A stretch of DNA of 64,000 bases from an uncultured Acidiphilium sp. (GCA_964452295.1 CAYVKZ010000001.1:56529-120528), one strand, 5' to 3'; positions 12,776 to 15,745 are shown, numbered from the stretch's first letter. Notes: generated from the sequence alone by a model not told the origin. Numbers and translations: made by a program.

Positions 12776-12804
12776 TTTACAAAAAATTTTAAAGATGATA
12801 TAAT
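12776..12804 (+). promoter_or_regulatory. Sigma-A-type promoter of rnpB
   Basis: TTTACA, 17 nt, TGaTATAAT. The predicted +1 (~12811) coincides with the first base of the P1 helix. Confidence 0.7.
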
Positions 12805-12810
12805 TTGATC

Positions 12811-13154
12811 GTTTGAGTCGGCTGTGCGGTTGCGGGGCGGAGGCAACGCCTTCGTCACGAGGAAAGTCCGGGCTTCGCAAAGCAGGGTGCCTGCTAACGG
12901 CAGGTGAAGGCGACTTTAAGGAAAGTGCAACAGAAAATTACCGCCGCAAGGTAAGGATGAAAAGGCGAGGTAAGAGCTCACCGGCTCCGCGGTAACGCGG
13001 GGCGCCGTGTAAACCCCACCCGAAGCAAGGTAGGAGCGTGCAAAGGGGCTTTGACCTGCACGTTCGTTCGAATAGCCGCTCGAGCGCGTCGGCAACGGCG
13101 CGCCTAGATAGATAACCGCACCAGACAGAACCCGGCTTATAGGTCGGCTCAAAC
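12811..13154 (+). ncRNA. rnpB: RNase P RNA
   Basis: Universal motifs GAGGAAAGTCCGGGC and ACAGAACCCGGCTTA. P1 pairs gtttgagtcggc (5') with gtcggctcaaac (3'). It forms a GC-rich island in an AT-rich context. Confidence 0.95.
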
Positions 13155-13180
13155 TCATTAAAAAAAAGCGTTAATCGCTT

Positions 13181-13210
13181 AAAACCGCACCCAACTCGGT
13201 GCGGTTTTTT
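13181..13210 (+). terminator. Intrinsic terminator of rnpB
   Basis: Stem aaaaccgcacc/ggtgcggtttt, loop caactc, then a T run. Confidence 0.85.
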
Positions 13211-13301: not shown

Positions 13302-13330
13302 TTGAGAAAAAATAAGAAGTGTGTTATACT
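13302..13330 (+). promoter_or_regulatory. Sigma-A-type promoter with extended -10
   Basis: TTGAGA (13302-13307), 17-nt spacer, TGtTATACT (13322-13330). Phased A-tracts (aaaaactt repeats, ~13230-13255) lie upstream. Confidence 0.55.
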
Positions 13331-13336
13331 AACTTA

Positions 13337-13531
13337 GCCAAACCAACTTAATAGTATTTTGGGGTATTGGGATAGTCTACCCATTTTTAGGGAATCACTA
13401 TAATTTTAAAATTTGTTAAAATGCAAATTTCGAACAATTATAGTGATTCGGGTATCCCATACTATTTTTGTTGGTTTGGCGACTATCGAAATTTGCGTTT
13501 TATGCGCTTACTTCGGTAGGCGCACTTTTTT
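13337..13531 (+). ncRNA. Candidate structured RNA (rod-like hairpin plus terminator), either an independent sRNA or a long leader of the methylase-nuclease operon
   Basis: The predicted +1 falls on the first base of an 11-bp closing helix (13337-13347 with 13470-13480). Further helices are 13350-13357/13459-13466, 13369-13374/13453-13458, a perfect 14-bp 13392-13405/13436-13449, and an apical 7-bp 13409-13415/13424-13430. It ends in the terminator at 13504-13531. No ORF is present. Confidence 0.45.
13504..13531 (+). terminator. Intrinsic terminator (UUCG tetraloop)
   Basis: gcgcttac-ttcg-gtaggcgc (8 bp including one G-U), followed by acTTTTTT. Confidence 0.75.
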
Positions 13532-13572
13532 ATATAAAGGTGCGACTTTATAAAAAAAGGAGCACTTAACAT

Positions 13573-14633
13573 ATGTCCGGAAATAAGAGTTTGAGGCAAG
13601 CAGATCGAGCAAAGAACGACGAATTTTATACTAGACTTGTCGATATCGAAAACGAATGTAAACACATAAGGAACACTTTAAAAACAAAATAATTTTTTGC
13701 AATTGCGACGACCCTTACGAAAGTAACTTTTTTAAGTATTTTGCGATGAATTTTAATCATTTAGGCTTAAAAAAATTAATCGCCACTTGTTACGACGGTT
13801 CGCCCGTCGCATACACTCAGTTATCCGTCTTCCCTGAAGACGAAAAAAGCTTTTTAAATAAAAATAAGCGAGCCTATAAAATAGAAATAACCGAGGTTAA
13901 AGATTATAACGGCGACGGCGCGGTTGATTTATCGGACGTAGAGTATTTGTTAAAGAATAAGAAAAACACTTTATCCGTTCTTAAAGGTGACGGCGATTTT
14001 CGCTCGCAAGAGTGTATAGAACTGTTAAAAGAAGCGGATATTGTGGTGACTAATCCGCCGTTCTCCTTATTCCGTGAATATGTTGCTCAACTTGTAGAAT
14101 ATGGTAAAAAATTTTTGATTATTGGTAATCAAAATGCTATTACGTATAAAGAAATTTTTCCTTTAATAAAGGACAATAAATTGTTTTTTGGTTTAACAAT
14201 GAATGGAAGCAATCGTTATTTTCAAGTACCCGACGATTATCATTTGACTGAAAAAACTGGGAAAATTATTGACGGAAAGAAATACGCATTTGTTAAAAGT
14301 GTGGTTTGGTTCACGAATTTAGATACAAAAAAACGCCACGAGATATTTCCGTTATACAAGAAATACACACCTGAAGAATATCCAAAATATGACAATTATC
14401 CCGCAATAAACATTGATAAGACAGTAGATATTCCTGTTGATTATGATGGCTTGATGGGCGTCCCTATTACTTTCTTTGATAAGTATAATCCATCTCAATT
14501 CGAAATAATCGACGGGATAGGAAGATACAGCATTTTAGACAACGAGAACACGAGAAAAGATGGAAAATATTTGTCTATGATAAACGGTATGGCGAAGTAT
14601 TTTCGTATTATTATTATTAAGAAAAGGAGTTAG
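13573..14633 (+). pseudogene. M.EcoRI-family N6-adenine DNA methyltransferase with an interrupted reading frame
   Basis: ATG 13573 with an AAAGGAG SD encodes MSGNKSLRQADRAKNDEFYTRLVDIENECKHIR and stops at 13690-13692. The continuation EHFKNKIIFCNCDDPYESNFFKYF.. is in the -1 frame (open from 13662) and runs into ORF 13746..14633, which carries GDGDFRS, VVTNPPFSLFREY, YPKYDNY, GVPITF and YFRIII. Colinearity with M.EcoRI is from memory. Confidence 0.75.
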
Positions 14634-14635
14634 TT

Positions 14636-15745
14636 ATGCAAATAGAATTACATGAAATAAAAATAAGAGAAATAGCTAACGGATATATAGATAGTCAAGA
14701 AAACGGCGTAGTGGGATACGGCGGAAAACTTAATATTCGCCCCGCGTTTCAGCGCGAATTCGTTTATAAAGAAAAACAGCGCAACGCCGTTATCGAAACG
14801 GTTATAAAAGGCTTCCCCTTAAACGTTATGTATTGGGTAGAAGACGAAAACGGCGGTTACGAGCTTTTAGACGGTCAGCAGCGCACTATTTCGATTTGCC
14901 AATACGTTAACGGCGATTTTTCGATTGACAGTAGGGCTTTTCATAATCTTACCGAAACCGAAAAAAATCAAATTTTAGATTATCCGCTGATGATTTATAT
15001 TTGCAACGGCAACGATAAAGAAAAGCTCGATTGGTTTAAAATAATTAATATCGCGGGCGTGCAATTAAAAGAACAAGAACTTCGCAACGCGATTTATACG
15101 GGCGAGTGGCTTTCGGACGCAAAACGATATTTTTCTAAAAACGGGTGCGTTGCCTATCGTTTGGCAAATAAATATCTTAACGGAGAAGTAAACAGGCAAG
15201 ATTATTTGCAAACAGTTTTAAAGTGGATTTCCGCAAAAGAAAATATCAAAATCGAAGATTATATGTCCGTTCATCAGCACGATAGCCATGCAACGCCGTT
15301 ATGGCAATATTTTCAGTCCGTTATAACTTGGGCGCAAACGATATTCCCGAAATACAGAAAGGAAATGAAGGGGCTTGATTGGGGAATTCTATATAATACA
15401 TACGGCGATAAAGTGTATAACCCGCAAAAATTAGAAGAAAAAATAATCGCTTTAATGCAAGACGACGATATAACCAAGCGTTCGGGAATTTACGAATACT
15501 TGCTTTCCGGCAACGAAAAACATCTTAATATACGAGCGTTTACGGATAACGAAAAAAGGCAGGTTTACGAAAAACAAAAAGGTATTTGTCCGCATTGCGC
15601 AGTCGAGCACAGAGATAAAATCCACTACGATATAAGTGAAATGGAAGCCGACCATATAACTCCGTGGTGCGAGGGTGGTAAAACCAACGTAGACAACTGC
15701 CAAATGCTATGCAAAGAACATAACAGAAAAAAATCGAACAAATAA
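14636..15745 (+). CDS. DUF262 (ParB/Srx-like, DGQQR) plus C-terminal HNH (His-Me finger) nuclease
   Basis: FQREFVY...LLDGQQRT (DGQQR at 14870-14884). C-terminal CPHC...EADHITPWCEGGKTNVDNCQMLCKEHNRKK (15650-15724). The ATG lies 2 nt after the methylase stop. Confidence 0.8.
   Translation: MQIELHEIKIREIANGYIDSQENGVVGYGGKLNIRPAFQREFVYKEKQRNAVIETVIKGFPLNVMYWVEDENGGYELLDGQQRTISICQYVNGDFSIDSRAFHNLTETEKNQILDYPLMIYICNGNDKEKLDWFKIINIAGVQLKEQELRNAIYTGEWLSDAKRYFSKNGCVAYRLANKYLNGEVNRQDYLQTVLKWISAKENIKIEDYMSVHQHDSHATPLWQYFQSVITWAQTIFPKYRKEMKGLDWGILYNTYGDKVYNPQKLEEKIIALMQDDDITKRSGIYEYLLSGNEKHLNIRAFTDNEKRQVYEKQKGICPHCAVEHRDKIHYDISEMEADHITPWCEGGKTNVDNCQMLCKEHNRKKSNK

Follow-up and report, generated by a model that had tools for sequence, protein, structure and literature searches.

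What kind of element occupies the space between the RNase P RNA gene (rnpB) and a methylase gene in an uncultured Acidiphilium sp. (GCA_964452295.1 CAYVKZ010000001.1:56529-120528)? The whole stretch of 64,000 nucleotides (nt), referred to here as the window, had been described in a preliminary way from its sequence, and a promoter-to-terminator unit for a structured, non-coding RNA of ~195 nt had been proposed at this locus. That proposal is supported, and the module which other bacteria share with the window is exactly this transcription unit. The comparison further suggests that the unit is also a leader, as a co-oriented gene with a Shine-Dalgarno (SD) sequence lies within 60 nt of it in ~80% of homologues and as conserved alternative pairings touch the terminator. 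The reading which we prefer, and to which we give about an even chance, is that this RNA belongs to a large and so far uncatalogued family, widespread in gut Clostridia, which acts as a bistable transcription-attenuation leader and also yields an abundant small RNA.

The transcription unit and its homologues

At least ~230 homologous units were gathered from metagenome-assembled genomes (MAGs) of gut Clostridia and from metagenomes. One genome per species was scanned for the exact arms of the closing helix (P1) separated by a variable gap; among the 120 matches listed at least 118, from 118 different assemblies, are true homologues, and the hosts of the matches were all gut Clostridia MAGs (Oscillospiraceae, Acutalibacteraceae, Ruminococcus, Faecousia, Christensenellaceae, Borkfalkiaceae and others). 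Since this pattern fixes P1 as invariant, the metagenomes were scanned with the 22-nt tail only, and more than 120 further units were obtained, at least. Both scans need exact patterns, so that the range and the copy number are lower bounds with an ascertainment bias; the family is several-fold larger than the units gathered.

All units were oriented as the window + strand before their promoters were compared, and nearly every one is preceded by a near-consensus promoter. Across 214 units the -10 box has a mean of 5.24 matches out of 6, the extended -10 TG is present in 173 and the -35 box has at least four of six matches in 156. The position of the promoter has the same comparative support: in 183 of the 214 exactly 6 nt lie between the end of the -10 box and position 1, the spacing which in the window makes G13337, the seventh base past the box, the predicted start of transcription, as had been proposed. 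On the 3' side of the rod the sequence GACUAUCGGAGUUUGCG-U6-GUGCGGUUAC-UUCG-GUAGCCGCAC-U5-7 varies very little from family to family. When loci are compared in pairs, nucleotide homology typically sets in 10-20 nt upstream of +1 and does not go past the terminator, and as it is bounded by the -10 box and the end of the terminator, the conserved module is the transcription unit. With recurrence in ~230 independent contigs and with promoter position and terminator conserved, the feature seen in the window is, to judge from the comparison, far beyond what chance would give.

No family of Rfam 15 matched the window unit at the gathering score or at E<=10, and no RNA family was found for the unit in 18 loci at the gathering score or in a consensus-type unit (L045) at E<=10; only weak chance matches were returned at E<=10, of terminator-rich small-RNA models to the rnpB terminator region. 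A description of the RNA was found neither in Rfam 15 nor in the literature searched, though the unnamed candidates of a metagenomic screen (PMC8040213) could include it. The unit was unmatched by blastn in plasmid and phage collections, and among viral contigs the inner-helix and P1 patterns gave no match and the tail pattern one contig (IMG/VR). Four contigs with the unit carry labels from outside the Clostridia, namely L025 (Alloprevotella), L100 (Bifidobacteriaceae), L093 and L081 (Selenomonadaceae). L025, L093 and L100 are 87-98% identical over ~1 kb to the Clostridiales contig L120, and the oddly labelled contigs are probably mis-binned and do not reflect horizontal transfer.

Copy number was judged on contig pieces, and most family sequences are MAG or metagenome contigs. 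Most contigs hold one unit, and four of ~230 hold two, the second copy being diverged or in tandem; in the 64-kb window no second copy was found by pattern search or with the family profile. Two units in the same genome stand in tandem or are separated by a few kb, as recorded for L072 (2008-2213 and 2268-2471), L089 (4093-4291 and 3765-3954), L061 (873-1078) and L187 (6372-6580). P1 and tail sequences of second copies have diverged; the tandem copies of L089 have an identical tail and terminator, and where the L072 contig ends a third copy of the promoter seems to begin. The P1 3' arm is interrupted in L137 (10369-10534, minus strand) by an inserted element of ~165 nt, which bears GGAAACTCTGAATAAAT... 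/ ...ATTTATTCAGAGCTTCC as terminal inverted repeats, has a TTAG duplication at its flanks and looks like a miniature inverted-repeat transposable element (MITE) by which the RNA gene was disrupted.

Fold, strand and alternative pairings

The RNA from 13337 to 13530 has a predicted folding energy of -74.2 kcal/mol, compared with -36.3 ± 4.1 for dinucleotide shuffles (z = -9.2), and none of 200 shuffles is as stable. The opposite strand of the unit reaches z = -9.4 too, at an energy of -63.6 kcal/mol. For the + strand rod the family mean is -59.4 kcal/mol, for the - strand rod -47.3, and in 109 of 113 homologues the former is the more stable. This bias is the signature of G.U pairs in a transcript: the + strand is the RNA.

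The rod consists of P1, a second helix in two parts (P2a and P2b), a bulged hairpin on the 5' arm, a long helix (P3) and an apical hairpin (P4), with P2, P3 and the bulged hairpin forming a three-way junction (Table 1). The perfect 11-bp P1, the perfect 14-bp P3 and the apical helix of the preliminary description were all confirmed. Its inner helix was reassigned, as UAUCCC (13453-58) pairs with GGGGUAU (13361-67) both in the minimum free energy (MFE) structure and by family homology; the extra hairpin of the 5' arm, thought to pair gggta with taccc, does exist but is closed by GGG..CCC (13368-71 / 13380-83).

Comparative support for the rod takes several forms. In the metagenome sample the window P1 3' arm is present in only 15 of 106 units and the 5' arm compensates in the rest, and diverged paralogues have wholly different P1 sequences; P1 is therefore an ordinary covarying helix, of which the outer GCCAAAC/GUUUGGC is commonly conserved. 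P2 and P3 were not recovered by MAFFT and RNAalifold because their sequence differs between clades, with indels. The arms were thus compared without alignment, by RNAduplex on cognate and non-cognate arms of 34 representatives with <70% arm identity. A left arm pairs with its own right arm at -28.6 ± 3.8 kcal/mol and with foreign right arms at -15.5 ± 4.5 (n=34), and the cognate arm ranks first in 25 of the 34 and never lower than third. Pairs in which both bases have changed occur in the bulged hairpin, P4, the terminator and the inner part of P1. The bulged hairpin has the family consensus GGGAUAnUUAUACCC-UUUUU, its three G-C pairs varying as GC, GU or AU; P4 has the consensus GAAUUUG-AUAAAAAU-GCAAAUUC, with 96.1% of cells paired and four pairs with changes on both sides; and the terminator, nearly invariant family-wide, covaries at four pairs. 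The A-rich P4 loop is complementary to U-rich junction strands in the majority group, and covariation was not seen there.

A rod of 140-160 nt plus tail, usually single-copy and behind a strong sigma-A promoter, with a superficially similar succession of closing stem, middle interruption and terminal stem, recalls 6S RNA, which the preliminary description had named as an alternative. That the unit is the 6S RNA of these Clostridia lineages, or an RNA-polymerase-binding functional analogue, is however very unlikely. RF00013 and 6S-Flavo were unmatched at E<=10 in the window unit and the L045 unit and at the gathering score in 18 loci, as was the rest of Rfam 15 in the window even at E<=10. The interruption is a one-sided bulged hairpin in a three-way junction, with 0-3 unpaired nt opposite in the window (~35 nt versus 5-10 nt in the family consensus), and not the two-sided central bubble of 6S RNA, which has neither a conserved tail-terminator switch nor a tight coupling to a downstream gene.

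The conserved tail which follows the rod can take part in two further helices. One of these joins it to the apex: tail positions 13487-96 match 13423-32 perfectly over 10 bp in the window, and across 113 distinct units this apex-tail helix (9-10 nt of tail) is paired in 99.6% of cells. Compensatory double changes affect five of its nine pairs (18 cells), a number reached by none of 500 shuffles, although these controls treat the units without phylogenetic correction. The double changes are of at least five different kinds and occur in different lineages, for example GCAGGUUCC/GGAGCCUGC in L042, GCAGAUUUC/GAAGUCUGC in L095, ACAAAUUCC/GGAGUUUGU in L044 and GCAAAUCCC/GGGGUUUGU in L006. As P4 and the apex-tail helix use one 3' strand and both covary, the comparison supports two mutually exclusive helices under selection. 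Taken as isolated duplexes, P4 has an energy of -4.8 kcal/mol and the stronger apex-tail helix one of -10.5 kcal/mol. Because the rod forms as well, the apex-tail helix is a pseudoknot-type contact, and it is geometrically possible that the P3-P4 arm folds back along P1-P2 at the three-way junction (arms of ~28 and 21 bp).

The other helix is a candidate antiterminator, in the window between 13483-90 and 13512-19, which is paired in 97.4% of cells. Its energy (-16.5 ± 1.9 kcal/mol) is close to that of the terminator (-16.7 ± 2.2), and the two are within 3 kcal/mol of each other in 82 of the 113 units. The terminator first described in the window, at 13503-13524 with a UUCG loop and T6, is there, but in the MFE structure of the window the antiterminator replaces it. 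In the second copy of L187, a paralogue, the tail is now GACAAC and the terminator 3' strand GUUGUC, both strands having changed. The motif GGAG is common to the antiterminator and the apex-tail helix. On these predicted pairings a chain of exclusions would result, from P4, which prevents the apex-tail helix, through this helix, which prevents the antiterminator, to the antiterminator, which prevents the terminator.

Coding potential was also considered. The unit had been described as lacking an open reading frame (ORF), and this holds in so far as the only one is a mechanical 46-codon TTG frame which is not conserved among homologues, though such a frame does overlap the unit. A leader peptide or small ORF was rejected, the AUGs in and near P4 not being conserved (ACG, AAG and AUA variants occur), as was a short GUG frame within the terminator, which is broken by 1-nt indels.

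The inverted repeats of the rod also raise the matter of a DNA-level element, either a MITE or other palindromic repeat or an invertible switch between the P1 repeats that toggles the downstream gene; invertible switches in gut bacteria typically act on genes for surface proteins or for restriction-modification. Terminal inverted repeats are indeed present, and a single natural sequence, found twice, has the entire rod turned round with respect to promoter and tail, a state in which the tail-complementary apex strand is lost and termination would be expected to change. We nevertheless consider a DNA-level element highly improbable, as the element occurs once in the window and as a rule once per contig, 231 of 233 units share one orientation, the strong G.U strand asymmetry implies selection on the RNA of one strand, the conserved module reaches past the repeats to promoter and terminator, and no recombinase family recurs nearby, although a recombinase acting in trans is still conceivable. 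The dispersed MITE of the preliminary description is excluded by copy number (no second copy in 64 kb, essentially one per contig elsewhere), strand asymmetry and the extent of conservation.

The two flipped units, L121 (3653-3856, an IMG/VR contig) and L215 (856-1059), are identical and thus one unique sequence among 233 units; the rod, including inner P1, is inverted relative to promoter, tail and terminator, and a phase variant, a misassembly or a rare inversion of the palindrome could explain this. Contigs also end within 25 nt upstream of the tail more often than expected (seven contigs versus ~1 among metagenome loci L122-L241). This excess was rejected as a sign of inversion, being better explained by assembly-graph breaks at a 65-nt block common to many species per sample.

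Table 1. Position of the RNA gene, its predicted pairings and the neighbouring features in the window
Feature	Coordinates	Strand	Details
rnpB promoter	12776-12804		
Class A RNase P RNA (rnpB)	12814-13155		
rnpB terminator	13181-13208		
Sigma-A type promoter	13302-13330	+	-35 TTGAGA 13302-07, 17-nt spacer, extended -10 TGtTATACT, as first described
Extended -10 TG and -10 box	13322-23, 13325-30	+	promoter scan 10/12
Predicted +1 (G13337) and P1 5' strand GCCAAACCAAC	13337-13347	+	perfect pairing with 13470-80
P2 5' strands	13350-13367	+	P2a 13350-56, P2b 13360-67; MFE partners 13460-66, 13452-59
Bulged hairpin of 5' arm, then U-run	13368-13391	+	GGG 13369-71 / CCC 13380-82, conserved loop
P3 5' strand	13392-13405	+	14 bp perfect with 13436-49
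Apical hairpin P4	13409-13430	+	13409-16 / 13423-30, loop 13417-22
Mechanical TTG frame	13413-13553		46 codons
Apical 3' strand GCAAAUUUCG	13423-13432	+	partner common to P4 5' strand and 3' tail
Rod 3' arm	13436-13480	+	P3 3' 13436-49, P2b 3' 13452-59, P2a 3' 13460-66, P1 3' 13470-80
Conserved 3' tail GACUAUCGAAAUUUGCG and U-run	13481-13501	+	13487-96 pairs with apex; 13483-90 antiterminator 5' half
Intrinsic terminator	13503-13531	+	13503-11 / 13516-24, UUCG loop, T6 13526-31; terminator scan
Antiterminator 3' half	13512-19	+	overlaps terminator loop and start of its 3' strand
SD and start codon of EcoRI-type methylase gene	13557-13575	+	SD AAGGAG 13557-62, ATG 13573-75; 42 nt past T-run
Methylase gene, split	13573-14633		39-codon piece 13573-13689, 295-codon ORF 13746-14633
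GmrSD_N (DUF262-type) + HNH protein gene	14636-15745		follows methylase

Downstream genes and the case for an attenuator leader

The coupling of the unit to a gene behind it has comparative support of its own. Within 60 nt past the terminator, 87 of 110 genome units and 85 of 104 metagenome units (172 of 214) have the start of a co-oriented ORF with an SD, and the next gene is co-oriented in 103 of the 107 loci with enough sequence. The genes themselves vary by clade, and their Pfam assignments include BspA-type leucine-rich repeats (LRR), DUF6591, the Listeria-Bacteroides repeat, zinc-ribbon, SHOCT, M23 peptidase and lipoprotein, among others. An N-terminal hydrophobic segment is present in 93 of 159 downstream proteins (58%) and in 122 of 641 control ORFs from the same loci (19%), a threefold difference, and zinc-ribbon-like N-termini are found in 9.4% of downstream proteins against 1.9% of other ORFs. 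The downstream genes thus appear enriched for envelope proteins, the product usually being, as far as can be predicted, a cell-surface protein.

The mechanism which we propose would begin at a strong constitutive sigma-A promoter, with transcription starting at G13337. The first ~145 nt would fold into the rod, with P1-P2, the three-way junction and its small conserved hairpin, P3 and the apical P4, and the next 17 nt, the tail, could then pair in either of two ways. In the first, the tail would invade the apical hairpin and pair with its 3' strand in a long-range, pseudoknot-type helix that leaves the terminator free; transcription would stop and the abundant ~195-nt RNA, which might also act in trans, would be the default product. 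In the second, the tail would pair with the terminator loop and 3' strand, and with this antiterminator formed in vivo RNA polymerase would read through into the gene 15-60 nt downstream. The direction of the switch is likewise a proposal, and the ratio of the two states would be set by a signal, if there is one, that stabilises P4 or the apex-tail helix, be it a protein, a small molecule bound at the conserved junction or folding kinetics.

Several points weigh against this attenuator mechanism, and it should be considered with caution. Promoter, +1 and termination are all predictions, and the copy number per genome comes only from contig pieces and exact-match patterns. The apex-tail contact needs a rod of ~40 bp to be folded back at the junction, or to be partly open. 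Covariation of the antiterminator is weak, with double changes in two pairs only; several tail variants weaken it, and in what is a weak cognate test the cognate partner is not generally the best. The downstream genes fall into 61 clusters among 105 and do not form one pathway, which speaks against a metabolite riboswitch. In three loci (L034, L042 and L112) the next gene is clearly convergent, and therefore the RNA can exist without a gene to control. Lastly, a uniform near-consensus promoter and a very strong terminator suit a stand-alone abundant RNA at least equally well.

Such a stand-alone RNA is the main rival, and we allow it a substantial minority of our confidence. It would be a housekeeping small RNA, for example one that binds or sequesters a protein, in which the terminator makes the 3' end, the apex-tail helix belongs to the native compact fold or the folding pathway, and neighbouring genes exploit leaky read-through. 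The near-consensus promoter in almost every species, the nearly invariant and very strong terminator, the usual single copy per contig, the absence of conserved synteny on either side, the three convergent neighbours and the position of some loci near stable-RNA genes (rnpB in the window, tmRNA in L001) would all fit. A plain terminator would, however, need neither an SD gene at so tight a distance, with no room for its own promoter in ~80% of units, nor an enrichment of envelope proteins downstream, nor selection on both P4 and the helix that excludes it, nor a terminator and antiterminator balanced on average within 0.2 kcal/mol. The attenuator leader and the housekeeping RNA are not mutually exclusive.

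In the window the gene in question encodes an EcoRI-type adenine methylase, with no room for a separate promoter ahead of its SD, and the preliminary description had noted the position of the unit directly upstream of a methylase-nuclease pair. A dedicated regulator of this pair, for instance one that times the establishment of restriction-modification, would also account for the same layout in L076 and L101, which share 1.7-2.3 kb of downstream sequence, for the methylase in L015, and for the clade-conserved GUGCGACUUUA...AAGGAGCAC between terminator and start codon. The position is true of the window but lineage-specific: EcoRI-type methylases make up only 3 of 87 scanned downstream proteins, besides that of the window, the rest being LRR, repeat, zinc-ribbon, lipoprotein and other proteins. 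The RNA is therefore much older and broader than its association with the methylase, and a dedicated role in restriction-modification is extremely unlikely.

The pair has some features of its own. The window methylase gene is split near 13665 by a 1-nt deletion in AAACAC-ATAAGG, which does not lie in a long homopolymer, relative to the intact orthologue of L101, and is either a pseudogene or an assembly error. The pair with the GmrSD_N/HNH protein is also found behind the RNA in L015, L076 and L101; the GmrSD_N and HNH architecture is usually tied to modification-dependent restriction, which makes a methylase an odd partner. The conserved GUGCGACUUUA...AAGGAGCAC (13539-13566 in the window) is confined to the window clade (L076, L095, L101), and its GUGC can pair with GCAC beside the SD, so that an extra layer of translational control may exist there.

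Upstream of the RNA gene, the window contains genes for a MurF-like ligase and Ddl, and rnpB, which has its own promoter and terminator and lies 180 nt away. In L001 (7386-7732) the RNA gene is ~780 nt downstream of tmRNA. No rnpB was found near the unit in the other loci examined (nhmmer, Rfam), and its adjacency in the window is probably a coincidence; nor was any gene family a conserved neighbour on either side, apart from the clade-specific genes. A small ORF family of ~117 aa (MAESIMLDKAKDFAV...) occurs upstream of the RNA in six loci (L001, L045, L119, L004, L008 and L029), at 75-177 nt from the unit in the first three, and is presumably similar to the '23S rRNA intervening sequence' proteins, which are four-helix bundles.

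Comparison with known systems and significance

The arrangement bears a resemblance to several regulatory systems. In attenuators such as the trp leader, with its 1:2/2:3/3:4 logic, and in the ZTP, preQ1 and fluoride riboswitches with their pseudoknot-type platforms, a structured, promoter-proximal RNA likewise stands before a co-oriented gene from which an intrinsic terminator separates it; helices that exclude one another in a chain (here P4, apex-tail, antiterminator and terminator) are likewise present, and the 3' strand of the long-range helix is shared with the expression platform. Unlike these, the unit has no leader peptide, no known ligand and no Rfam match, its downstream genes lack a single pathway, contigs usually have one copy, the sensor would be a 145-nt rod with long variable helices and the promoter is uniformly near-consensus. 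The GEMM cyclic di-GMP riboswitches of Clostridia also control termination upstream of mixed, mostly surface or envelope genes; they are usually multi-copy, however, whereas the unit, known here from its sequence alone, usually has one copy and is unmatched to them in sequence and structure (Rfam negative). In the cwpV-type switch of Clostridioides difficile the promoter lies outside a leader segment of ~150-200 bp flanked by inverted repeats, whose orientation sets a terminator. A promoter outside an inverted-repeat segment in the leader of a surface gene is found here too, but there is one flipped example among 233 units, and RNA covariation and strand asymmetry point to a fixed orientation.

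The combination of a strong constitutive promoter, an immediate terminator and an abundant RNA of ~200 nt is also seen in the PR'-tR' '6S' transcript of lambda and in StxS of Stx phages (PMC7547250); the genes behind are expressed only on antitermination, and the short StxS RNA is reported to act in trans. The unit differs in being chromosomal, the P1 pattern being unmatched among viral contigs and the tail pattern matched in one of them (IMG/VR), in having no known Q-like factor and in preceding a single gene and not a late operon.

We rate the element as a new RNA family with a proposed mechanism of the attenuator type; what sets it apart are the usually single copy, the uniformly strong promoter, the long-range apex-tail switch and the lineage-specific downstream genes. 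A bolder proposal, which we regard as rather unlikely, sees in it a signal-sensing switch of a new kind that a whole bacterial class has conserved, usually as one unit per genome. The junction and apex would respond to a global cue, for example an RNA-binding protein, a second messenger or a metabolite related to the envelope, and the RNA would gate the surface or accessory gene, specific to the lineage, that happens to have been captured behind it. In a variant more exotic still, the rare rod inversion of L121/L215, which removes the tail-capturing apex strand, would make the unit a heritable on/off switch.

The carriers (Oscillospirales, Christensenellales and relatives) are abundant gut commensals that have been little studied experimentally, and if confirmed the RNA would be among the few widely shared non-coding RNAs there besides RNase P, tmRNA, the signal recognition particle (SRP) RNA and 6S. 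An entry in an RNA database would stop such intergenic regions from being read as empty or as spurious ORFs, and the family is a ready covariation data set for a long-range conformational switch. A strong promoter joined to a gated terminator would also be a natural expression cassette for organisms without genetic tools. As the apparent targets are mostly secreted or surface proteins, they are the molecules with which these bacteria meet their host and their phages.

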